In this document: positions 10,761-55,885 of the stretch, piece after piece
How positions within the stretch are numbered: the stretch's first letter is position 1
Layout: every line of letters begins with the position of its first letter
From: Trueperaceae bacterium
GTDB taxonomy: Bacteria > Deinococcota > Deinococci > Deinococcales > Trueperaceae
Length of the DNA stretch: 64,000 bases
Assembly (NCBI GenBank): GCA_965215565.1
Contig: CBDCDZ010000004.1
Span: 352,001 to 416,000 of the forward strand
Direction of reading: 5' to 3'
The notes under the pieces: generated by a model
What the model was told of the DNA's origin: nothing
The model's database searches: none
The model's input: the letters and a program-made list of their open reading frames with translations, nothing else
Position numbers and translations under genes: made by a program

Positions 10761-11082
10761 CGATGTTCTTATAAGTAAGAGCGTTGCTTCGCTTCTCCCG
10801 AAGGTGCGCGAAGCCTCCGTCAGGAAGGGCTTGCGCGTTAGCCAACGAAGTTACGCAAACGAAGTTTCCCTTTCGCATACAGGTGATCGCTGAACAGGTG
10901 AAGGCTAAGAGCCTAGTGAGCTTTGCTCTAACCTGAGGTGAAGGCTAAGAGCCTAGTGAGCTTTGCTCTAACCTATGCGAACGGTTTTCAACCGTAACCT
11001 GTGCGAAAACGGCGTGACCGGGAATGGCTTCGATCAAGCTGACCAGATGATTGCGCGAAGCTTTACGAAGTAACCTGCTATA
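10761..11082. repeat. Expanded MITE copy filled with nested mini-elements, including a 39-bp unit repeated in tandem (10896-10934, 10936-10974)
   Basis: Shares GATGTTCT..AGTAAGAG.GTTGCTTCGC and AAGCTGACCAGATGAT..ACCTGCTA with 8160-8227; left end not defined. Confidence 0.75.
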
Positions 11083-18236: not shown

Positions 18237-18312
18237 GGGGCCTTAGCTCAGCTGGGAGAGCACCTGCTTTGCAAGCAGGGGGTCATCAGTTCGAATCTGA
18301 TAGGCTCCACCA
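18237..18312 (+). tRNA. tRNA-Ala(TGC)
   Basis: 76 nt GGGGCCT...AGGCTCCACCA with G3:U70, anticodon arm CCTGC-TTTGCAA-GCAGG, TTCGAAT loop, encoded CCA. Confidence 0.98.
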
Positions 18313-18336
18313 TTAGAAAAGCGCGTCAGAAACGTA

Positions 18337-18380
18337 GGAAACCGGAATGCTTAAATGGCGTTCCGGTTCTCTTTTTGTTT
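18337..18380 (+). terminator. Intrinsic terminator after the tRNA
   Basis: AACCGGAATGC...GCGTTCCGGTT stem followed by a T-rich run. Confidence 0.7.
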
Positions 18381-18427
18381 GATTTACTACTACGCCACTA
18401 CTAAAGGCTATAAACCGAGTCAACACA

Positions 18428-19500
18428 CTACGTCTCGTCACGTGATGGCGTAATACCAGGCACAACTTCAACAGCCTCGTCTTCAGCGAAGTGCGTGTAG
18501 ATGTCTAAGGTCATACTTGGTCTCGAGTGTCCCAATAGTCCCGAAGCTGTTTTGAGAGGGACGCCCGCGTAGTGCAAATTCGTTGCGAACATATGCCTCA
18601 AATCGTGTAAATTTGCGCGAGGAATCTGCGCCTTGTCCTGCAATACCTGCCAAGTGCGCGTTAAGTTACGGTGGCTGATAGGCGTGTTGGTTACAGACGT
18701 GAATATGAGATTATGGATAGGCGCATCTGCTCCTAAAGCGCATGACTCTTGCCGCTGAACCTTTTGGTAAATGTAGAGTGCAGCGAGAACGTCATCAGGT
18801 AAGCCGAGCCGCCGCTGGCTCGAACGTGTTTTCAGGGGCGCAAGTTGTCCGTCACGCCCTAGCTGATAGGTCACTCTAAAGACATTACCGGATAGGTCGT
18901 CCTACCTCAACCCGAGGAGTTCACCCTGCCGTAAGCCGGTAGCGAGGGCTAGTGTGAAGAGTGCGCATAGTCGATGAGCCTGGAGAGAGGCGAGGATACG
19001 TTGCTTATCTTCGCTGCTCCAACTGATTGGTGTTCGAGGTGTTTCAGGAAAGGGTTTGGTGGCGCTCACCGGATTGCGGTGGATCAGCTCGAGATCGTAG
19101 GCGTCGTTAAGCGCGTTGAGTAAAACGGCGCGACACTGGTTAGCAGAACGTGTCCCGACCTCGTCAGCAAGTGTTCCTATTGCGGCGCGAACTTCTTGAG
19201 GGGAGCGCGCGACGAGCTTTGAGCGTCCTAGTACGCGAGATAGATAATGAACGTTACGTGTATAAGTTTCAGCCGTTCTAGGGCGTATACTGCGCCGCTT
19301 ATAGGTCAGCCACTCCTCCAAATACTCGTTGAGAGTTCGTGTACTCCCGTTGTAAGTACCTTGCTTCACTTGCTGCTTTAGGTTATCTAACTTCTGAGCA
19401 ACTTCTTACCGCGTCTTCCCGTAAACGAACTTGGGGTTTTCGGCCCAACCCCTCGAAAAGGTACATTTCAGAGCTAGCGCAGGGACTCTATAACCGCGTC
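18428..19500 (-). pseudogene. Phage/ICE-type tyrosine integrase beside tRNA-Ala, inactivated
   Basis: TGLRQGELLGLR then in-frame TAG at 18902-18904; HDLRH and LGHS..MTLDIY downstream; 5' end degraded and abutting an IS5 remnant. Confidence 0.9.
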
Positions 19501-21394: not shown

Positions 21395-21428
21395 TTTGTG
21401 CAGCGAACGCGCGCAACTCTTACAGAAC
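21395..21428. repeat. 34-bp palindromic module-boundary site S1
   Basis: TTTGTGCAGCGAAC GCGCGC AACTCTTACAGAAC. Confidence 0.8.
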
Positions 21429-27384: not shown

Positions 27385-27462
27385 AGGTGAAGGCATAGGT
27401 CAGAGCGAAGCTCAAAGCACCTTGTGCTTCACCTATAGAGCCTTTGAGCTTTGCTCTAACCT
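27385..27462. mobile_element. AGGTGA...TAACCT mini-element with an inverted family member nested inside (27397-27434)
   Basis: AGGTGAAGGCAT[AGGTCAGAGCGAAGCTC...TTCACCT]ATAGAGCCTTTGAGCTTTGCTCTAACCT. Confidence 0.8.
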
Positions 27463-27529
27463 TGTGGGTCAAGCCGGGCGGGGCTTGCGCCGGGTCGCGG
27501 CTGAACGCAAGGCTTGTGACACCAAGTCA

Positions 27530-28149: not shown

Positions 28150-28183
28150 CTTCTGCGGCAGACGCGCGCGTTAGCTGCAGAAT
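28150..28183. repeat. 34-bp site S2
   Basis: CTTCTGCGGCAGAC GCGCGC GTTAGCTGCAGAAT. Confidence 0.88.
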
Positions 28184-28261: not shown

Positions 28262-28633
28262 ATGGCAACAAGCTTGCTCGACCATACGCTTCTCAGCGCA
28301 CACGACCCCGCAACGGGCCGTTATGACGCCAAACTTTTAGCCGACGTTCTCGCTGTCTCTCAGAAAGAGATGGCAAAGGTTGTTAGCTACACACCGCGAG
28401 GACTCGGCAAAAACCCCGCCTCACCCCACCTACAACCGCAACTGGAGCGGCTCGTCAAGCTCGTCACGACGCTACGCGAGCTTCTCGACGGGGATATGAG
28501 TTTAGTGCGCGTCTGGCTCAAAGCGCCTCATCCGGCCCTAGGAAACGCGAAGCCGCTCGATTATCTCATGGAGGGCCACCTCGACCTTGTCGAAGGGCTC
28601 GTCTACGCGATTGAGACCGGGCAACCTGATTAG
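28262..28633 (+). CDS. Xre/MbcA/ParS-type antitoxin
   Basis: WLKAPHPALG..KPLDYL C-terminal motif; overlaps the RES gene. Confidence 0.88.
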   Translation: MATSLLDHTLLSAHDPATGRYDAKLLADVLAVSQKEMAKVVSYTPRGLGKNPASPHLQPQLERLVKLVTTLRELLDGDMSLVRVWLKAPHPALGNAKPLDYLMEGHLDLVEGLVYAIETGQPD

Positions 28634-29205
28634 TGCTCGATACTGAGAAGCTCGCGCTTGCCCTCCGTAATCTCCAGCCGACGCCTTTAACGCAAACTTT
28701 CTTCCGCATTATCCACGCGAAGTACGCCTCCACTGCTCTTTCCGCAGTGGGATCGTATCGTTTCGGCGGACGCTACAACCCAGCAGGCACGTTCGAGGTG
28801 CTCTACCTAGCCGACAATCCGGTTACAGCTCTGGAAGAGGTCGAAGCGCTGCTGCGCACCAACGACGACCTCAAAGGTGTTAAGGGACCACCGAGGATCG
28901 TGTTGTCAGTCGAGTGCGCACTTCAGCGTGTCGTTCAGCTTGGTGAAAGCGCACTGCGTAACCTCGAGCTTTCAGTTGAGGACGTCACCGGGCCGTGGCG
29001 CGAGAGCTTGAGGCGCAACCAAACCCCAATGACCCACCAGATAGGGCAAATCAGCTTCGAGCGGGGCGACGTTGAGGCGCTGCTCGCACCTTCTGCAAAG
29101 AACCCGGCAACCTCAAACCTCATAGTGTTTCCGGATAGATTGATGGAAGGTAGTGCTTTACGAGTCTTTGATGACTCCGGCATGATTGACGCGCGTCTAC
29201 CATAA
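28633..29205 (+). CDS. RES-domain toxin (NAD+ phosphorylase family)
   Basis: GGRYN, LYLA....TALEE and PSA motifs. Confidence 0.9.
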   Translation: MLDTEKLALALRNLQPTPLTQTFFRIIHAKYASTALSAVGSYRFGGRYNPAGTFEVLYLADNPVTALEEVEALLRTNDDLKGVKGPPRIVLSVECALQRVVQLGESALRNLELSVEDVTGPWRESLRRNQTPMTHQIGQISFERGDVEALLAPSAKNPATSNLIVFPDRLMEGSALRVFDDSGMIDARLP

Positions 29206-29234
29206 CCAAACCCATTGATCGAGAACTGACTGCT

Positions 29235-30119
29235 TCACTGCGGAAAATGTCTCCTGTAGAGCATCTGCCTAGATTCCCCGGATAGGTTGACGTAAAGCTG
29301 CGTCGTGGTAGGCGAGGCGTGCCCGAGGATGGACTGCACCGCTGCGATAGGTGCACCTTGATTTAAGAGCAGCGTGGCGAGGGTGTGGCGCAAGACGTGC
29401 GGCGTCACCTTTTCCTCTAAGCCGCACCGCTCGGTGACCTGCTTGAAAATACGCTGCATCTGTGAGGTGCTGAGGCGCTGATGTTGCAGCGTTTCATCCT
29501 CCTGTCGCCTGCGACGTTTTGTCACGAAGAGTGCTAAAGCGCTGTCCGAGCGACTGTCCAGATACCGCCTGAGCCACAGCGCCGCTTTCGCCCCGAAGTA
29601 CACCTCGCGCTCCTTATTCCCTTTGCCAAGAACCACAACACTCCGGCGTGACCAGTCGAGGTCAATGCGGTCAAGTTGATGAATTTTGCTAACCCTGCAG
29701 CCAGTCGCAAAAAAGAACTCAACGAGGGCGTGTTCCAATAAACTCTCGCAGGCGTCACGCAGTAGTTCTACTTCTTCGACAGATAGAGCCTTGGGTATCC
29801 GTGCGGGCAGGCGCGGCTCTCGCAGTTTCAGTGCAGGATTCCGCTCGAGAATCTCCTCCTCATAGAGTCACTTGAAAAACGCTTTGAGCGCTCGTACCTT
29901 GTTTGCCAAACTCGAGGTCTGCAAGTGCGTTAGGCTCGTGAGGTGAGCGCGCAGGTGCTCGAGCTTAATCGTCTGAACGGCAGTATCTACGTCCAAGTCA
30001 AGAACTAAGCCCTGCAAGTGCAACTTATAGGAGTAGAGCGTCTTGTTGCTATAGCCATCTAGCTTCTGGGCTTTCAGGTACGTGCGGATGCAGCTTACTA
30101 GGGTGAAATCCTCTTTCAT
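29235..30119 (-). pseudogene. Second copy of the XerD-like tyrosine recombinase, nonsense mutant
   Basis: Colinear with 37675-38565; TGG>TGA at 29868-29870; RVSE>RVSK. Confidence 0.93.
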
Positions 30120-30183
30120 GAGAAACCTCCAAGCCATAGTCTGTACGGCGATTTACTTTGTATCGTGCTTGAAAGGCAGTAGT

Positions 30184-30217
30184 TTTCTGCGATGACCACG
30201 CGCTGAAAATTTCGCCA
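30184..30217. repeat. Degenerate 34-bp site upstream of the pseudo-recombinase
   Basis: TTTCTGCGATGACC ACGCGC then a decayed arm; 65 bp from the ATG, versus 66 bp for S5. Confidence 0.65.
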
Positions 30218-30314
30218 ACCTAAATGCGAAATACCTAGCCATCCAACCTCGCGTTCCTCACATGCAAGTAACGCCTCTTGCAAAATCAAGTATACTGAGG
30301 TCAAGGAGGCTGTC

Positions 30315-30809
30315 ATGGCTGCAAGTACCCCTCAAGCAACCTTGATTGATACGGATACGTTCTTTCAGACCCTTTCGGCGGATAAACCTAATGTGGTCAA
30401 GCGCAAAACCTTTGAGGCCGTTACGGGGCTCGACTACTACGCGCTTGACACCATCTGGCTCAGACAGGGTGAGATACCCGTGCGTCTCTCAGCTAGAGCG
30501 ATGATGACTAACCTAGGTACGCTCCTGGACCTTCGTAGCAAAGAGGTCGCGTCACTCCTCGGCGTTAGCGAGTCTCGCGTCAGTCGTAACAACCAGGTGA
30601 CGCTCGCCATGCTCGACCGCGCTGAAGGGGTCAGTGATACCTTCTCTAAGGTCGCCGCCGTGCTCGGCTTCGAGCACGCACGTGACTGGTTCAAATCACC
30701 CAATTCGGCTTTGGAGGGCGCAGCGCCTTACACGTTACTGAGCACCCACTATGGGCAAAAGAAGGTCGATAACCTGATCGCCGCACTCCTCAATGGGGCG
30801 GTTATTTGA
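30315..30809 (+). CDS. Xre/MbcA/ParS-type antitoxin
   Basis: WFKSPNSALEG.AP..LL.T..G motif. Confidence 0.88.
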   Translation: MAASTPQATLIDTDTFFQTLSADKPNVVKRKTFEAVTGLDYYALDTIWLRQGEIPVRLSARAMMTNLGTLLDLRSKEVASLLGVSESRVSRNNQVTLAMLDRAEGVSDTFSKVAAVLGFEHARDWFKSPNSALEGAAPYTLLSTHYGQKKVDNLIAALLNGAVI

Positions 30810-31447
30810 TACGAATTTACCGGCTCGCCCACGAGCTGGCGCTCGCCAAAAACCCCCAACCTTTTCAGCCTGCTCCTAGTGAGAACCGCTGGAACTCGGT
30901 CGGCACGCAAGTGGCTTATGGCGGAGAACATATTGCGCTTAGCGCGTTGGAACTCCTGACCTGTTGGGGACACTATCCCAACATGCGTGGTTATCAGCTC
31001 TTTACGCTCGACATTCGCTCTGAAGACGTAGAGGATGTGCTTGATCAGCGTCCTAATATCGACCCAAACGACTACAGTCAAACGCGCCGCTACGGAGATA
31101 GTTGGGTCGAGGAAGGGCGTTCGCTGGCGCTTAAAGTGCCGAGCGTGGTCGTCCCGATGAGCTACAACTACCTCGTCAATCCTGATCACCCTGCTTTCGA
31201 TCCGGAGGCAGTTGCCTTCCGCGGTGCGTTCGAATACGAGGCGAGGATCGCAAAGCTTATCGAGGAAGCGAAAGCAGACCGCCCTTCGAGTCGAAGCTAC
31301 CCTACCTACAGAATCCGTTGTGCGAGAGATGCGCGCGTATGCCGCACAACCTTTGAGGCAGGCAGGGCAAGCTGTGAGCACGTTCTCCTCGGCGCGCCGT
31401 GCAGCTTCGCCGCTTCATACTCTTTTGCGCCTATACTGTCTTCGTGA
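30806..31447 (+). CDS. RES-domain toxin with a read-through C-terminal tail
   Basis: NRWN, ALE, VPSVVVP and NYLVNPDHP motifs; domain ends near 31270 but the ORF crosses site S3. Confidence 0.85.
   Translation: MIRIYRLAHELALAKNPQPFQPAPSENRWNSVGTQVAYGGEHIALSALELLTCWGHYPNMRGYQLFTLDIRSEDVEDVLDQRPNIDPNDYSQTRRYGDSWVEEGRSLALKVPSVVVPMSYNYLVNPDHPAFDPEAVAFRGAFEYEARIAKLIEEAKADRPSSRSYPTYRIRCARDARVCRTTFEAGRASCEHVLLGAPCSFAASYSFAPILSS
31317..31350. repeat. 34-bp site S3
   Basis: GTTGTGCGAGAGAT GCGCGC GTATGCCGCACAAC. Confidence 0.9.
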
Positions 31448-32200: not shown

Positions 32201-32234
32201 GTTGTGCGTGTGATGCGCGCATCTCGTGCACAAC
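32201..32234. repeat. 34-bp site S4
   Basis: GTTGTGCGTGTGAT GCGCGC ATCTCGTGCACAAC. Confidence 0.9.
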
Positions 32235-32281: not shown

Positions 32282-32545
32282 TTAACGAAGTCTCAAAAGC
32301 TCTCGCACGCGCTGGTGCGGCAGGGCGTGCGCAGTCCGCCCCTCCGCACCCATGGTGGTCTTGGCAGCTACGAGAGCGTTGACGATCGCCTCCTCGACCC
32401 CTTGCACAGTCCCTTCGAACAGCGGCGTCATCAGGCCGCTACTCAGCATCCCGAGCGCCGTTACACCCGAGCGCCTCGCCGCGCCGGAGTTCGCGGTTGA
32501 GAACGCCAAGAAGATATCGCCAGAGGTGTGGGCGCCGTAGCTGCG
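32282..32545 (-). pseudogene. C-terminal fragment of a DmpA/P1 peptidase
   Basis: SGDIFLAFST and VEEAIVNALVAA motifs. Confidence 0.8.
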
Positions 32546-32598
32546 GAAGAGTTGCGAGCGCCTGACGCACAAGGTTAGCTTTGAGAACCTCAGAAGGT

Positions 32599-37000: not shown

Positions 37001-37422
37001 CGAGCGACGCTGAGGCACCCGTCATCACCCTGAAGCGCTCAGGTCAGACCCTCTTCCCGCCCAACCATAAGTACCGGACGCTCGACCTCGCGCAGATCAT
37101 CGCCTCGGTGAGTGACAACGTGTCCGACCTCTCTGTGTCCGACGTGGTCATCACTCGCGTCACCAGCGACGAGCCGGAGAACGGCACCGGAGACGGCAAT
37201 ACAGATGACGACATCGTCCTCGAGGGCTGCCAGGTGGTGGAGCTCCGGGCCGAGCGGAGCGGGCCTGGGGACGGCCGCGTCTACACGGTCGAGATTGCGG
37301 TGCAAGACCGGGCGGGCAACGTCGGCACGGCCAGCTACCGGGTCGAGGTGCCTAAAGGACGTAAGGACGCGGCTATTGACAGCGGCACGGCCTATAGCGT
37401 CACCGGGTGCGAGCTTCCATAG
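34018..37422 (+). CDS. ExeM/NucH-family extracellular nuclease lipoprotein (two lamin-tail domains, OB fold, EEP domain)
   Basis: LAAC lipobox; FSEYVEGSS.NKALE; SFNVLNYFN, NHFKSKG, GDLNAY and SSDHDPV motifs. Confidence 0.95.
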   Translation: MKRVQIVLAALFIGLLAACERDVASEVPLSDLAASDLFFSEYVEGSSSNKALEVYNGTGVPVDLSSYSVEIYFNGNSSAGTTIDLIGVVADGDVFVLADDGADPAILAETDQTSTSNFFNGDDAIVLRNDGEVVDAFGRVGTDPGLQFGSGDTGSQNNTLRRAADTMSGDTDPNDAFDPATEYEGFGQDNFGDLGMFDGSDPAPSIVINEVDADTPGSDSAEFVELYDGGAGSTPLDGLVVVFFNGSDDASYEAFDLDGQTTDENGFFVLGNPDVANVDLVFDPGNSGALQNGADAGALYQGDASDFPNDTPVTTDNLVDAIVYDTDDGGDSGLLDGLGETTQFNEDANNDKDNESNARVPDGMGEFTAQAPTPGASNAGDGGNGGGDGGGEIGQCGTDATLISAVQGSGATSPLVGQTVVIEGVVVGDFQASDDGMFGDLDGFHVQEEVTDYDADEETSEGVFVFTGSSDVPDVQVGQTVRVRGTVGEFESSGSSQTQITDPTVVICSEGVLPPVTDITLPVPPRNFLERYEGMYVRFPQSLAISEYFNFDRFGEIVLARPLPGEDRPYQPTAVNEPGSEAAAERDEDNRLARITLDDGRSNQNPDPARHPNGEVFDLDNRFRGGDLVQNALGVLDNTFGIYRVQPTQGANYTRVNPRPEEPEAVGGSLKVASFNVLNYFNGDGQGGGFPTSRGADDPEEFQRQEAKIVASIVGTGADVVGLIEIENDPAGETSALDDLTEALNAEAGAGTYDYIRTGDIGTDEIKVAFIYKPGTVTPIGDPAVLTEFEGRDFVDPRDIGPKNRPALAQTFREEATGGVLTVVVNHFKSKGSSCGPGDDDPDQGNCNGTRADAADILVDWLASDPTGSGDPDVLVIGDLNAYDKEDPIDQVKEGADDADGTEDDYADLNLAFEGELAYSYVFSGQFGYLDYALANQALLDQVTGLTEWHINADEPDILDYDTTFKKDPQDALFEPNPYRSSDHDPVIVGLDLTPSDAEAPVITLKRSGQTLFPPNHKYRTLDLAQIIASVSDNVSDLSVSDVVITRVTSDEPENGTGDGNTDDDIVLEGCQVVELRAERSGPGDGRVYTVEIAVQDRAGNVGTASYRVEVPKGRKDAAIDSGTAYSVTGCELP

Positions 37423-37487
37423 GCTCTCGGGATATAGATGGAAAGGTAAGCTGAAGGCTGCTGAGCTTCAACCTAGATGCTGAACTT

Positions 37488-37519
37488 CAACCTCCCCGTC
37501 TTACCGGGGAGGTTGCTTT
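37488..37519 (+). terminator. Terminator-like hairpin after the nuclease gene
   Basis: CAACCTCCCCG...CGGGGAGGTTG stem. Confidence 0.65.
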
Positions 37520-37575
37520 GACGCTCGGTAGACCCACTGATGATAAGGCTAGTTAGCCTCGGCAGACCTAACTTC

Positions 37576-37609
37576 GCTGTGCGGCGAACGCGCGCAACAG
37601 CCGTAGAAG
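37576..37609. repeat. 34-bp site S5, 66 bp upstream of the intact recombinase
   Basis: GCTGTGCGGCGAAC GCGCGC AACAGCCGTAGAAG. Confidence 0.88.
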
Positions 37610-37674
37610 CCCATTACTTCCCCAAGAACGATTCAACTTAAACCTCCGTGCAGACTACAGATCGGAGGTTTTTC

Positions 37675-38565
37675 ATGGACAAACAAGAAGCATCCACTTT
37701 GGCAAGCTGCGTTCAGACGTACTTAAAAGCCCGAAAGTTGGACGGCTACAGCGATAAAACGCTCTACTCCTATAGACTGCATCTGAATCATTTAGCCGCA
37801 GATTTAGGTGATGCTACTCCTATTAGCATGGTTAAGCTCGAGCACCTCCGCACCCACCTCACCAGCCTGACGCACCTGCAAACCTCGAGCCTAGCGAACA
37901 AGGTTCGCGCCCTTAAAGCGTTTTTCAAGTGGCTTTACGAGGAAGAGGTGTTGGAGCGTAACCCCGCGTTGAAGCTGAGGGAGCCGCGCTTGCCAGCTAG
38001 AATACCCAAAGCGCTCTCAGTTGAAGAAGTGGAGCTGCTGCGTGACGCCTGCGAGAGTTTATTGGAGCACGCCCTAGTTGAGTTCTTTTTTGCGACTGGC
38101 TGCAGGGTTAGCGAAATTCATCAACTGGACCGTATCGACCTCGACTGGCTGCGCCGGAGCGTCGTGGTCCTCGGCAAGGGCAACAAGGAGCGTGAGGTGT
38201 ACTTCGGGGCGAAGGCGGCGCTGTGGCTCAAGCGCTACTTGGACAACCGCTCAGACAACACTTTAGCACTGTTCGTCACGAAGCGACGGAGACGTCAGCA
38301 TAGCGGGACTTTAGAACATCAGCGCCTGAGCACCTCGCAAATGCAGCGCATCTTTAAGCGGGTCGCTAAGCGGTGCGAGTTGGAGGAGAAAGTGACGCCG
38401 CACGTGTTGCGCCATACACTCGCCACGCTGCTTCTCAATCAAGGTGCGCCCATCGCTGCCGTGCAATCCATTCTCGGGCACGCCTCACCCACGACTACGC
38501 AGCTCTACGTCAACCTATCCGGGGAATCAAGGCAGATGCTCTATAGGAGGCACTTCCCGCAATGA
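37675..38565 (+). CDS. XerD-like tyrosine recombinase, 296 aa, intact
   Basis: RBS GGAGG; N-terminal SAM-like domain; TGCRVSE, GKGNKER, HVLRH, LGH and TTQLY catalytic set complete. Confidence 0.95.
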   Translation: MDKQEASTLASCVQTYLKARKLDGYSDKTLYSYRLHLNHLAADLGDATPISMVKLEHLRTHLTSLTHLQTSSLANKVRALKAFFKWLYEEEVLERNPALKLREPRLPARIPKALSVEEVELLRDACESLLEHALVEFFFATGCRVSEIHQLDRIDLDWLRRSVVVLGKGNKEREVYFGAKAALWLKRYLDNRSDNTLALFVTKRRRRQHSGTLEHQRLSTSQMQRIFKRVAKRCELEEKVTPHVLRHTLATLLLNQGAPIAAVQSILGHASPTTTQLYVNLSGESRQMLYRRHFPQ

Positions 38566-38626
38566 ACCGCCGCACCTCAGCAAGCACGGGTTTTTGCGCT
38601 ACAATGTTATGTAACTAGGAGTATTC

Positions 38627-38896
38627 ATGGACGCAGCCGCGCTACCCCACCTACCTAAGCTTACAGAGTTGCCGATAAGTCTGCCCACTGACGGTGCGAT
38701 CAATATCGAGATTGTTCAAGGTGTACCTACCTTTCGAGCTTCAACTGCCGTGGTGGGTAGGATCGAGCAGCTCCTCAAGAAAGAGCAAGAAAAGGGGTTG
38801 AGCGTCTCTGAAGCGGATGAACTGGCTCAGTATGAAGAGGTCGATGACTACCTCAGCCATCTGAACCGCGTCGTTTGTAATTTGCAGAGCGCTTAG
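38627..38896 (+). CDS. Small hypothetical protein, partner of the HNH gene (antitoxin-like)
   Basis: Own TACAAT and AGGAG; RIEQLL.K.....LS..E..EL..Y pattern. Confidence 0.7.
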   Translation: MDAAALPHLPKLTELPISLPTDGAINIEIVQGVPTFRASTAVVGRIEQLLKKEQEKGLSVSEADELAQYEEVDDYLSHLNRVVCNLQSA

Positions 38897-38903
38897 CGCG
38901 GGA

Positions 38904-39469
38904 GTGGCGCGACCTAAAGTACCCATCGCTCTAAGAACCGAAGTCAGAGAGCGCGCAAAGTCATTATGCGAGTACTGCCACACCGACGAGACGTGGCAGT
39001 ACGTTCCTTTTACTATCGACCACGTTGTTCCGGTCAGTCTAGGTGGTTCTATAGCAGGAGAGAACCTTGCACTTGCCTGTTTCCACTGCAATCGGTACAA
39101 GGGCGATGCGACTCAGGCTACTGACTCTTCTACGGGTCAAACCGCGCAACTATAGCAGGTATCATCTGGTTTGAGCCAATCTCACACGATAGAACAACGG
39201 CTAGCACGCACATTGTCGGATGATATCTGCGCTATTTCAGTCCAATACTTTTGATAACCGCTATATTTAACCCGAGAACGCAGCGCTGGGCAGAGCACTT
39301 CATCTGGTCGAGCGACAAGCTACGAATCGTTGCGTTGACAGCTACAGGTAGAGCGACATTGCGTGCCTTGAATCTCAACCGTGAGCGGGTACTGCGCATA
39401 CGCGAAGCGGATGTCGCTGTTGGACAGCATCCACCTCATGACGACCCGGTACAGAGTAAAGAGGTTTAG
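38904..39469 (+). pseudogene. HNH endonuclease interrupted by a MITE
   Basis: CEYC, IDHVVP, NL..AC..CN; continues LFNPRTQRWAEHF after removing 39153-39265. Confidence 0.92.
39153..39263. mobile_element. 111-bp MITE with TA duplication
   Basis: TIR TAGCAGGTATCA / TGATAACCGCTA (10/12); removal restores CAA CTA TTT AAC CCG. Confidence 0.9.
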
Positions 39470-39471
39470 GT

Positions 39472-39505
39472 GCTATGCGCGTGATGTGCGCGTTAAGCGC
39501 AGAAG
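39472..39505. repeat. 34-bp site S6
   Basis: GCTATGCGCGTGAT GTGCGC GTTAAGCGCAGAAG, 2 bp after the HNH stop. Confidence 0.85.
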
Positions 39506-39532
39506 CCGTTGGTCAGCTTTCGCTGATAGGTT

Positions 39533-39970
39533 CTAGGCTCCGTCTTTACTCTCCAGCCCCTTATAACATTTTGTTAGCAGCGCACACGCTTGCTCGATCT
39601 CCACTTGTGTCAGCTCCCGCGTCATCCGCTTTTCAACCTCAGCTACCAAACTGTGAGCATGTTCCAAGAGCGCTTGCCCCTCAGCAGTCGGTTTCACCCG
39701 CTGAATACGTCCATGCTCGGGGTGCGGCGAGCGCTCTAGCAGCGCGCCACGCTCAAGCCCGATCACGATCTGGTACATAGTCTGAGGTGTTACGAAACAG
39801 CGGCGAGCAAGTTCGGCATTTGAGAGCCCCTGCTCCTTCACCAGCTCGCCCAACGCGGCGTACTGCGGGGTCGTAAGGTCTAGTGTCGCGAGCGCTGCAT
39901 CCATGTTGCTGCGCAGCGCCGACTGAGCGCGCTTGAGGAGATAGCCGAGAGGATCAGAGGTCAGGTTCAT
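39533..39970 (-). CDS. MarR-family regulator
   Basis: LTTPQY..L, SNAELAR..VTPQ and T.EG motifs. Confidence 0.93.
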   Translation of the reverse strand: MNLTSDPLGYLLKRAQSALRSNMDAALATLDLTTPQYAALGELVKEQGLSNAELARRCFVTPQTMYQIVIGLERGALLERSPHPEHGRIQRVKPTAEGQALLEHAHSLVAEVEKRMTRELTQVEIEQACALLTKCYKGLESKDGA

Positions 39971-39982
39971 GGCTTGGCATTA

Positions 39983-40028
39983 TATCAGGGTACTGATAAT
40001 CTAGCTACAAGTTATCAGGGTACTGATA
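39983..40028. promoter_or_regulatory. Two identical palindromic operators, probably for the MarR
   Basis: TATCAGGGTACTGATA at 39983-39998 and 40013-40028 between divergent genes. Confidence 0.85.
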
Positions 40029-40043
40029 AATAGGAGGTCAAGA

Positions 40044-40418
40044 ATGAATGTAAAAACGAAGGTTGACGGTCCCGACTTCATTGCGCTACAATGGCGCGAT
40101 TTGGACCCTGGCAAACGTTTCTACCACGAGACGCTAGGGCTAGCACTCGCCCCGCAGAGCCCGCCTGGTGCAGTTGTTTTCGCTACCGAGCATATCACCT
40201 TTGCCGTGCGGACGCCGCTCGTCAATCTAGACCTCACCCCACATCGGGGTTATGGCGTGGCACTCTGGTTCAAGGTAGACGACAGCGCGAAGCTACGTGA
40301 CCATCTGGTTGACAAGGGGGTTGAGGTCACGTCGGACCTAGTAGACGGTCCCTTTGGCAAGACCTTTTCCATCCGGGACCCTGAGGGTTACCTCATCACC
40401 CTTCACGACTGTGGCTGA
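40044..40418 (+). CDS. VOC/glyoxalase family protein
   Basis: FY..TLGL and GPFGKTFSIRDPEGY motifs. Confidence 0.92.
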   Translation: MNVKTKVDGPDFIALQWRDLDPGKRFYHETLGLALAPQSPPGAVVFATEHITFAVRTPLVNLDLTPHRGYGVALWFKVDDSAKLRDHLVDKGVEVTSDLVDGPFGKTFSIRDPEGYLITLHDCG

Positions 40419-40863
40419 GGCGCATTACTGGGTCAACACAGTGTCGCGCGATCACGTATGGGCAGGGGTCGAGGGCGGCTTCACCCAAGCGGATCACGGC
40501 AAGCGCACACGCCTCGAGCGTCTAAGAAGAGGGAACATGCTGATTTTCTACTCTCCTAGAACTGCTTTTAGGGGTGGGGAGGTGCTGCAGGCGTTTACCG
40601 CCTTGGGCGAAATCATAGACAACGAGCCCTATCAAGTCGAGATGACGTCCGACTTTCATCCCTGGCGACGTAAGGTGAGCTTCGAAGGGGTGAAAGAAGC
40701 ACCGGTACGTCCTTTACTAGAAGACCTTACCTTCGTTACTGATAAACGGAAGTGGGGCTTCCCCTTTCGGCGCGGGCTCTTCGAGATCAGCCCGCAGGAC
40801 TTCGAGCGGATCGCTAAGGCGATGGGCGCACAGGTCGAGATGCCAGCACAGCTATTCGGTTGA
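40411..40863 (+). CDS. EVE-domain protein
   Basis: YWVNTVSRDHV..GV.GGF.QA.HGK and FRRGLFEI...DF motifs. Confidence 0.88.
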   Translation: MAEAHYWVNTVSRDHVWAGVEGGFTQADHGKRTRLERLRRGNMLIFYSPRTAFRGGEVLQAFTALGEIIDNEPYQVEMTSDFHPWRRKVSFEGVKEAPVRPLLEDLTFVTDKRKWGFPFRRGLFEISPQDFERIAKAMGAQVEMPAQLFG

Positions 40864-40872
40864 ACTATGGTG

Positions 40873-40906
40873 CTTCTGCGACTAACACGCGCGGTTGACG
40901 CATTGC
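40873..40906. repeat. 34-bp site S7
   Basis: CTTCTGCGACTAAC ACGCGC GGTTGACGCATTGC, 9 bp after the EVE stop. Confidence 0.85.
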
Positions 40907-41588: not shown

Positions 41589-41622
41589 GCTGTGCAGCAG
41601 ACGCGCGCGTCTCTTGCAGAGG
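41589..41622. repeat. 34-bp site S8
   Basis: GCTGTGCAGCAGAC GCGCGC GTCTCTTGCAGAGG. Confidence 0.88.
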
Positions 41623-54107: not shown

Positions 54108-54141
54108 CTTCTGCGACGAACGCGCGCAACTGTTGCGTTAG
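54108..54141. repeat. 34-bp site S9
   Basis: CTTCTGCGACGAAC GCGCGC AACTGTTGCGTTAG; overlaps the GNAT stop codon. Confidence 0.85.
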
Positions 54142-54867: not shown

Positions 54868-54901
54868 TTAGTGCGACAGACGCGCGCGACTCTCGCATTG
54901 C
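54868..54901. repeat. 34-bp site S10
   Basis: TTAGTGCGACAGAC GCGCGC GACTCTCGCATTGC. Confidence 0.88.
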
Positions 54902-54993: not shown

Positions 54994-55386
54994 ATGACCG
55001 TCCAACAGTTAGTTCAAGGCAACAGCACGGAGCGCATTGCAGCAGTTCGCGAAGGACTCTCCTTCGAGAGCTTCGTCACGCTGCGTGAAGCCTTAGACGT
55101 GGGTACAGATGAGCTCGCTCAGCTTTTGGGCATTCCCCGTCGCACGCTGACCAAGCGGCAGAGCGAGGGCGTCTTCAAGCTTGCCGAGAGCAACGCCATC
55201 AGCCGGGTGGCTCGCGTGTACAAGGAAACGCTCGACTTCTTCAGTGATGAGGCAGACACGCTGAGATGGCTTAAAACGCCTCTGCCCGCGCTTGGCGGCG
55301 CACCTTTAAGCTTACTTGATACCGATCCAGGCGCTGACGCGGTGAGTACACTCCTCACTCAGCTCGCTTGGGGCATCTATCCTTGA
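54994..55386 (+). CDS. Xre/MbcA/ParS antitoxin
   Basis: VREGL, LGIPRRTL.KR and WLKTPLPALGG.PLSLLDT motifs. Confidence 0.93.
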   Translation: MTVQQLVQGNSTERIAAVREGLSFESFVTLREALDVGTDELAQLLGIPRRTLTKRQSEGVFKLAESNAISRVARVYKETLDFFSDEADTLRWLKTPLPALGGAPLSLLDTDPGADAVSTLLTQLAWGIYP

Positions 55387-55838
55387 TCGTCGCTTGGCGG
55401 CTCACCCACGAGCGCTTCAAAGACCAAGCAGTAAGCGGTAACGGTGGGCTGTTCGCCCCCGGACGTTGGCATAGCCAAGGAAAACGAATTGTATATAGCT
55501 CAAGCAGCTTGGCGCTTGCCACGCTCGAGCTGTTCGTGAACTTGCAGAACAAGCGGCAGCTCGCCCACTATGTCAAGAGCCGAATAGAGATTCCTCAAGA
55601 GCTTACCGAAACCCTAGAGGAAGATGCTCTAAGGACGTTTTTACGGGCTCCCGACCAGTTTGACAGCCGTGGCTACGGCGACTCGTGGCTCGCTGGGGAG
55701 CGAAGCTGTGTACTCCAGGTTCCGAGTCGGGTGGTACCGCAGGAATGGAACTACCTCATCAACCCATTGCACACAGATTTCGAGAAGATCGTCGCCTCGA
55801 CTAGCCTATACGAGGTGGATGAGCGCCTTTTGCTATAA
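55383..55838 (+). CDS. RES-domain toxin
   Basis: GRWH, YSS.SLALATLE, VPS.VVP and NYLINPLH motifs. Confidence 0.93.
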   Translation: MIVAWRLTHERFKDQAVSGNGGLFAPGRWHSQGKRIVYSSSSLALATLELFVNLQNKRQLAHYVKSRIEIPQELTETLEEDALRTFLRAPDQFDSRGYGDSWLAGERSCVLQVPSRVVPQEWNYLINPLHTDFEKIVASTSLYEVDERLLL

Positions 55839-55851
55839 AGCAGTAGTCAGA

Positions 55852-55885
55852 GTTGTGCGTGAAACGCGCGCGTCACACGCAGAAG
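55852..55885. repeat. 34-bp site S11
   Basis: GTTGTGCGTGAAAC GCGCGC GTCACACGCAGAAG, 13 bp after the RES stop. Confidence 0.9.

Follow-up and report, generated by a model that had tools for sequence, protein, structure and literature searches.

A simple tyrosine recombinase and a dispersed family of 32-bp sites point to an apparently undescribed gene cassette system in Trueperaceae

The DNA analysed here, hereafter the window, is a stretch of 64,000 nucleotides from a Trueperaceae bacterium (contig CBDCDZ010000004.1, positions 352,001 to 416,000), and it contains an intact gene for a predicted tyrosine recombinase of 296 aa, the sole intact close copy in the genome (Table 1). The catalytic residues R144, K168, H243, R246, H269, and Y278 are invariant in an alignment of 31 sequences that includes XerC, XerD, and IntI1. 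Pfam detects a SAM-like core-binding domain (residues 17-92) and a catalytic domain (residues 114-281) and nothing else, an arm-binding domain being absent. The initial annotation had described an intact enzyme with the full R-K-H-R-H-Y set, no N-terminal arm-binding domain, and a short insert rather than the long IntI-type insertion, and each part of this description holds. The insert (residues 203-216) is approximately 10 aa longer than in Bacillota relatives and approximately 19 alignment columns shorter than that of IntI1; it is basic and occupies the position of the IntI insertion, and most Bacillota relatives are without it. Together, alignment and domain models confirm the predicted protein as a simple tyrosine recombinase consisting of a core-binding and a catalytic domain.

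The closest homologues of the recombinase are 81-90% identical and all belong to Trueperaceae. Its scores against the XerC and XerD equivalog models are 206 and 199 bits (cut-offs 335 and 330), and its score against the IntI model TIGR02249 is 109 (cut-off 265). No XerC, XerD, or IntI above the model cut-off occurs in this genome, which holds four further, distant tyrosine recombinases. A housekeeping XerC/XerD acting on a single dif site, the identity that the initial annotation had set against its own proposal, can be rejected, as the protein falls below both cut-offs, forms a separate clade, is missing from most of the family (present in 7 of 128 genomes), and is accompanied by 39 sites. 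Among the 40 of 43 plasmid homologues listed at E<=1e-30, none is annotated as TnpI, and no Tn3 transposase is annotated beside the recombinase gene in the window. Phage homologues at the same threshold comprise 10 records, each at most 38% identical.

The recombinase gene itself lies between two sites within a 1.9-kb module (37577-39504). Its left boundary, S5, ends exactly 66 bp before the ATG, precisely as initially reported. Such genes are usually found beside a toxin-antitoxin or nuclease gene, the neighboring cargo being Xre-RES, HNH, or YhcG in 8 of 9 Trueperaceae copies. The HNH gene of the present module is interrupted by a TA-flanked miniature inverted-repeat element of approximately 113 bp (MITE, 39151-39263) that gives 266 blastn hits across the genome, and a contig of sequencing run X3 skips exactly this stretch. 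The second recombinase copy in the window is a pseudogene, its in-frame stop having been overlooked in the first reading. A homologous site had also been placed 65 bp before this copy; a site-like stretch is indeed present at that distance, but only one arm is kept and its position weight matrix (PWM) score is negative. Trueperaceae recombinase copies are often decayed, and both copies in a related genome (G001) look damaged, one by a stop at codon 4 and the other by the change G268D beside the catalytic His.

Table 1. Positions of the recombinase genes, sites, and cassettes in the window.
Feature	Position	Strand	Basis or remark
Site	21396..21427		Matrix
Site closing second recombinase cassette	28151..28182		Homology with a G005 cassette ends at its core
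Cargo of second recombinase cassette: Xre/MbcA antitoxin and RES toxin	28262-29205		
Second recombinase copy, pseudogene	29235..30119	-	87% identical; in-frame stop at codon 85
Half-decayed site 65 bp before second recombinase copy	30185..30216		One arm kept; PWM score -15 (S5: 32)
Site	31318..31349		Matrix
Site	32202..32233		Matrix
Weak, decayed site	32541..32572		13.8 bits; end of a G002 cassette maps here
Site S5: 13-bp arm, core GCGCGC, 13-bp arm	37577..37608		Left boundary of recombinase cassette; PWM score 32
Conserved hairpin over GGAGG ribosome-binding site	37641..37670	+	Alignment, folding
Tyrosine recombinase gene, intact, 296 aa	37675..38565	+	ORF; sole intact close copy in genome
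Cassette cargo: 89-aa ORF (no Pfam match) and HNH nuclease gene split by MITE	38627..39469	+	
Site, core GTGCGC	39473..39504		Right boundary of recombinase cassette
MarR, glyoxalase, and EVE cassette	39473..40905		97% identical site to site in G001, with different neighbors
Site, core ACGCGC	40874..40905		Matrix
Site	41590..41621		Matrix
Site, left end of single-gene GNAT cassette	54109..54140		Cassette homologue in G002
Site	54869..54900		Matrix
Site, right end of Xre-RES toxin-antitoxin cassette	55853..55884		Matrix

Several other features of the window were recorded. Three distinct Xre/MbcA-RES toxin-antitoxin pairs lie within 28 kb (28262-31447 and 54994-55838), and such pairs are the dominant toxin-antitoxin cargo in relatives as well. 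A tRNA-Ala gene followed by a broken phage-type integrase (18237-19369) borders the array region on the left, and the location of the cassette array looks like an island hotspot. Another small repeat family is probably represented by a 39-bp tandem duplicate with related inverted repeats at 10896-10974, 27397-27467, and also 50249.

The sites were collected with a matrix grown from 22 seeds and trained on this genome. They number 39 in eight groups, 34 on the chromosome and five on a 49.7-kb contig, with 11 falling in the window. On the chromosome, 34 sites exceed 16 bits compared with 1 on the reversed chromosome, and a pattern derived from the matrix has 45, 42, and 10 matches in three other genomes while the reversed-pattern control has 0. 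The sites are intergenic and dispersed, each consisting of 32 bp in a 13-6-13 arrangement, and both arms share one consensus with neither C-type/D-type asymmetry nor end classes. S5 adjoins the recombinase gene yet resembles any other site. The small contig carrying five sites (G000 C2:15234-46054) is possibly a plasmid, and hence a vehicle for cassettes.

The ends of homology were mapped relative to the sites. The 1.2-kb flanks of all sites were compared within this genome and with site-bearing stretches of three relatives. At sites above 16 bits, 0 alignments cross and 256 end, whereas control points placed 400 bp off give 361 crossing alignments and 64 ending ones; these counts tally alignments from both sides rather than independent events, and the genomes are kin. 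The comparison yielded 87 homologous cassette-end pairs. For the 35 pairs at 90% identity or more, agreement is 0.93 in the cassette's own flank, 0.88 in its own arm, and 0.97 in the core, but it drops to 0.56 in the far arm (0.60 for random arms) and to 0.26 beyond it. Of the 12 pairs with at least 99% identity, 11 share all 13 bases of their own arm and 11 share all 6 bases of the core, while the far arm agrees at a mean of 7.2 of 13 positions compared with 7.8 for random arms. Exceptions among these 12 are two pairs that share 11-12 of 13 far-arm bases and one that differs in its own arm. In near-identical pairs, then, gene order breaks at the 6-bp core.

Whole modules have been relocated and duplicated between related genomes. 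Among 136 site-to-site stretches of 8 kb or less, 27 form 13 families, and a neighboring family is common to 0 of 15 pairs. The MarR, glyoxalase, and EVE cassette of the window belongs to one of these families. The median spacing of Trueperaceae sites is 2.1 kb (146 intervals below 20 kb), and sites lie between convergent genes in 46 of 112 cases and between divergent genes in 14. In a sample of 44 window ORFs and 130 ORFs of relatives (14 beside recombinase genes and 116 of 173 listed), the cargo comprises regulators together with their enzymes, efflux genes, arsenic and chromate genes, and toxin-antitoxin pairs. A reading of these regions as defense islands was rejected, since PADLOC matched only 3 of 37 chosen cargo proteins (two HNH and one PDC-S02/YhcG) and the cargo is therefore not mainly anti-phage. 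In contigs from four sequencing runs, none of the 15 joints listed (29 in total) cleanly joins two sites, which speaks neither for nor against activity. Separately, a module encoding TetR, DoxX, and an FAD-monooxygenase occurs twice in the genome (G000 C4:28462-32935 and C4:1533767-1536809). The two copies show 100% identity for 1.5 kb or more, with 12 of 13 far-arm bases shared, and approximately 90% identity thereafter, for which gene conversion or assembly collapse may be offered as readings.

The distribution of enzyme and site overlaps across the family. A close enzyme and the site are both found in the same 4 of 41 relatives. Of 128 family genomes (79 with completeness of 90% or above and contamination of 5% or below), 7 encode an enzyme with at least 71% identity, 8 hold the exact site, and 6 combine the two. 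This co-occurrence is not strict, as G179 and G180 hold sites without the enzyme; each site-only Trueperaceae genome belongs to a genus in which a congener has the enzyme. G268 encodes a 71%-identical enzyme and lacks the GCGCGC-type site, and it carries instead 19 matches to a site with the same arm style and the directional core GGGCCG. One such variant site, read by eye and unflagged by the matrices, lies 62 bp before its enzyme gene. The directional core GGGCCG marks a second Trueperaceae cassette pool, with 19 matches in G268, 14 in G265, and 8 in G267; no enzyme was detected in the latter two genomes, which are congeners of G268, while G266, another congener, holds GCGCGC-type sites instead. 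A further Trueperaceae genome, G202 (L197), has a split homologue that is 49-53% identical and is accompanied by Bacillota-like sites with the core GGGCGC, possibly a separate acquisition.

A phylogenetic comparison with XerC/D, IntI, and an IntXO-like enzyme, as proposed in the initial annotation, favors a distinct enzyme. In a quick IQ-TREE analysis of 123 rows (SH-aLRT only, without bootstrap, midpoint-rooted), the Trueperaceae proteins form a clade (SH-aLRT 100) beside Alicyclobacillaceae and Sulfobacillus proteins, nested in a 56-row clade (SH-aLRT 97) with Bacillaceae proteins of approximately 280 aa. The 56-row clade stands apart from XerC, XerD, XerS, IntI1, and the pXO1 integrase, which we take to be IntXO. 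The nesting of the Trueperaceae clade inside Bacillota in this midpoint-rooted tree suggests transfer into Trueperaceae, and the recombinase system probably reached the family from Bacillota, among relatives of Bacillus.

Related sites accompany these Bacillota enzymes. They flank the enzyme gene in all 13 Bacillaceae loci and in 12 of the 16 from the Alicyclobacillus group, compared with 2 single weak matches in 44 loci of the longer, 330-aa sister types; the Bacillota matrices were trained on the same loci, and reversed controls gave 0-1 matches per locus. The Bacillus arm differs from one common Trueperaceae arm at a few positions only. Homology again breaks at the core in 29 Bacillales pairs; 8 alignments cross a site, and 6 of these come from one pair of near-identical loci. 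Among 20 Bacillales stretches, 3 that surround short-type enzyme genes contain no site. In 121 Bacillales genomes the site pattern occurs in 75 (reversed control 15) and the enzyme in 26, so that another recombinase could act there or the arrays could be orphans. This co-occurrence test is a weak one because the fixed pattern is insensitive, missing genomes with 6-16 matrix sites near the gene. Searching de novo for palindromes ahead of 80 homologue genes, a procedure that proved too strict, gave convincing repeated sites for L006, L048, and L068 only.

The Bacillota loci provided additional observations. Group IIC-attC introns are known from integrons, and a group II intron inserted in Bacillales-type sites, bordering the 6-bp core (L128:23241; L025 at approximately 5516), recalls them, L026 presenting the empty site at approximately 5515. 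In L128 (plasmid CP053689.1, 2730-28400), a homologue is surrounded by 35 sites in 31 kb, almost all of which lie between short genes on the same strand. These sites have the core classes CTGCCA and GCATCA/GCATGC and include many doublets of 57-72 bp, which together suggest nested cassette classes. The 330-aa sister types, including Bacteroidota loci such as L053 and L063, lack these sites, and in two sister loci the frame is open far upstream and reads, by eye, like a restriction specificity subunit, suggesting that these types have a different role.

The initial annotation had linked site and enzyme through their conserved spacing and proposed that homologues be examined for an upstream palindrome. 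The palindrome itself recurs: of 7 homologue loci in Trueperaceae, 5 have a site 62-66 bp upstream of the gene. However, the spacing is a weak link between the two, because the 66 bp are the cassette's own end, inherited with the gene: beyond the S5 core the homologue loci are unrelated, and the far side differs in every homologue. The gap is also ordinary for cassette genes, given that among six other inward-pointing cassette genes in the window four start 75-95 bp from a site and two at 167 and 211 bp. In Bacillota a site upstream of the gene is not a constant feature: within 400 bp, 6 of 22 Bacillales copies have one and none of the 16 loci in the Alicyclobacillus group does, 7 of these loci carrying a site just downstream instead. 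The further suggestion of autorepression via S5 is unsupported for the same reasons, and a scan of 37380-38700 returned 0 promoters and 0 terminators, with no promoter-like match overlapping S5.

A likelier brake than autorepression is the predicted hairpin over the ribosome-binding site. It aligns in 11 of 11 copies with 87.6% of cells paired and 2 pairs changed on both sides, it folds at a z of -2.2, and in this genome it precedes the two recombinase copies only. Its covariation score was reached by 1 of 500 shuffles, a value inflated by the relatedness of the sequences. This structure would limit translation of the recombinase from read-through transcripts, keeping the enzyme scarce. An in-frame GTG nine codons upstream of the start, inside the hairpin (37648-37674), is kept in most Trueperaceae copies, and the hairpin loop is also conserved. 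In the fold-back control of IS transposases, a hairpin hides a promoter element; by analogy, the loop could hide a -10 element.

The symmetry of the core differs between the two lineages. Bacillales cores are directional, with 181 of 190 adjacent sites co-oriented and 76 of 82 single-gene cassettes pointing in the same direction, and the arrays, mostly single-gene, accept cores with differences at as many as 3 positions. In Trueperaceae, no division of cassette ends into heads and tails is consistent, as 10 of 23, 8 of 19, and 4 of 8 cycles of the end graph are odd at three identity thresholds. We considered arm classes that might mark head and tail ends and rejected them on the basis of these cycles and of the single arm consensus. 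Thus, in Trueperaceae a symmetric core goes with the loss of polarity, as expected if the core is palindromic.

Simple tyrosine recombinases such as XerCD and Cre generally place one monomer on each arm of a double-stranded substrate. We consider it likely that the recombinase described here is a dedicated enzyme that exchanges gene modules at the 32-bp sites. Its earlier designation as the probable engine is well supported by the breakpoints at the core, by co-occurrence, by site variation that tracks enzyme divergence, and by the tree, though not by the geometry. The enzyme would bind each 13-bp arm of a double-stranded site, one monomer per arm. Strand exchange over the 6-bp core would then join any two sites whose cores match, thereby excising modules as circles, inserting them at other sites, and inverting them. 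The palindromic core would allow modules to enter either way round, the recombinase's own module would be an autonomous member, and the system as a whole would derive from Bacillota.

From these comparisons we infer that this protein, rather than another, catalyzes the exchange. An alternative, which we consider unlikely, is that the sites are true junctions moved by another enzyme (a host Xer-type recombinase or other protein acting in trans) and that this gene is mere cargo. Sites without the enzyme in four Trueperaceae genomes and in many Bacillales (75 against 26 of 121) would fit this account, as would the four other, distant tyrosine recombinases encoded here, and G001, which has the most sites despite its damaged-looking enzyme copies, counts against a role for the enzyme. 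In the accessible text of PMC13141974, Acinetobacter dif modules use XerC/XerD binding sites like those of chromosomal dif. Against such an account, this genome has no XerC or XerD above cut-off, and the sites show one consensus for both arms instead of C-type and D-type halves. The site sequence varies with the enzyme clade across Trueperaceae, Alicyclobacillaceae, and Bacillaceae, and the site-only genomes fall in genera whose congeners do have the enzyme.

It is less probable still that the enzyme acts in the manner of an integron integrase on folded single strands with attC-like hairpins. The polar, mostly single-gene Bacillales arrays with their tolerance of differing cores are reminiscent of this, as is the short basic insert, which sits where IntI carries its insertion. 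However, pairing between arms amounts to 7.94 of 13 positions within a site and 7.79 of 13 between cassette ends compared with 7.79 of 13 for random arms, and S5 folds no better than shuffles (z 0.11). Pairing at the random level led us to reject attC-like pairing of arms; it argues against single-strand hairpins and for double-stranded sites. The insert is lacking in most Bacillota relatives, and the IntI score remains far below its cut-off (109 versus 265).

Equally remote is a reading of the palindrome as a selfish element repeated across the genome or as an operator (a REP-like sequence, or the target of a regulator or of the recombinase as autorepressor), with breaks produced there by homologous recombination or insertion bias: although the sites are intergenic and dispersed in eight groups and one precedes the gene by 62-66 bp in 5 of 7 close homologues, the breakpoint counts largely refute it, the arms of different sites are approximately 60% alike and thus too dissimilar for homologous recombination to act while homology still breaks at the core, the excess of convergent over divergent locations is unlike that of operators, no target duplication was seen outside the site, and no Rfam family matches the sites.

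The dedicated-enzyme reading invites comparison with known systems. As described in the accessible text of PMC13141974, Acinetobacter dif modules (pdif) comprise one or a few accessory genes, often toxin-antitoxin pairs, between two-arm sites with a 6-bp spacer; crossover takes place within the site, and modules are shuffled, inverted, and excised. The Trueperaceae system shares the two-arm site with a 6-bp spacer as its crossover point and the small accessory modules. However, dif modules have distinct XerC and XerD arms, alternate between C and D modules, and depend on host XerCD, whereas one arm consensus, a palindromic core, and mostly chromosomal arrays are found here, together with a dedicated non-XerCD enzyme on its own module. 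A comparable mixture applies to integrons and CALINs (PMC8618304 and PMC4889954, in their accessible parts), which likewise feature a tyrosine recombinase, exchangeable cassettes, toxin-antitoxin cargo, and enzyme-less arrays. The Trueperaceae system shares with integrons its arrays of independently mobile gene cassettes, and the Bacillales form is integron-like in being polar and mostly single-gene with a group II intron inserted in its sites. Unlike in integrons, IntI is absent above cut-off, arm pairing, S5 folding, and Rfam give no sign of attC hairpins, and the recombinase gene is itself cargo. S5 does not stand out from other sites as a fixed attI/Pc platform would, and modules in Trueperaceae lack polarity and are spaced at a median of 2.1 kb.

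Other tyrosine recombinases share less with this system. XerC/XerD-dif and archaeal XerA (PDB 1a0p, 4a8e, 5hxy) have the same two domains, catalytic set, and 6-bp core at 31-37% identity, but the present enzyme belongs to a separate clade with a patchy distribution and is accompanied by 39 sites rather than one. IntXO of pXO1 is a simple tyrosine recombinase with a cognate palindromic 37-bp PSL and serves plasmid maintenance, according to the accessible portion of PMC5567495. A cassette array is present here instead, and the presumed IntXO, which has its own long branch, matches at an E-value of 3e-5 over 61 aa. GInts (PMC5385486) are reportedly genomic islands with four defining recombination genes and differ by that description from the single enzyme seen here. 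The accessible part of a tyrosine recombinase classification (PMC8138268) names no such subgroup, and a literature search that took in few subscription journals returned no description of this cassette system. As such, we regard it as an apparently undescribed recombinase-driven cassette system that resembles dif modules and integrons and lacks defining features of both.

In a broader interpretation, toward which we lean with some caution, this would be a third, independently evolved cassette system beside integrons and dif modules, with its own recombinase clade and double-stranded 13-6-13 sites. Complete integrons were not found in Firmicutes genomes, as stated in the accessible text of PMC4889954, and the system would fill this gap in Bacillota, where the enzyme occurs in approximately one fifth of sampled Bacillales genomes and sites in many more, and would have jumped into Deinococcota. 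The 6-bp core would act as a switch: directional cores would yield polar single-gene arrays, different cores would maintain separate pools, and palindromic GCGCGC would allow shuffling without regard to orientation, with a recombinase cassette that moves itself and is guarded by a toxin.

If this holds, stress, detoxification, efflux, toxin-antitoxin, and nuclease genes would be moving in Firmicutes and Trueperaceae by a route that has gone unrecognised. Standard tools seek IntI and attC only, while the system can be found from its 32-bp motif. A single-protein recombinase of 296 aa with tolerant 13-bp arms could also serve as a genetic tool. Finally, the Trueperaceae branch represents a natural experiment in which enzyme, arms, and core have diverged stepwise, from Bacillaceae through Alicyclobacillaceae and G268 to this genome, and this stepwise divergence ties the enzyme to its site and makes the role of core symmetry testable.
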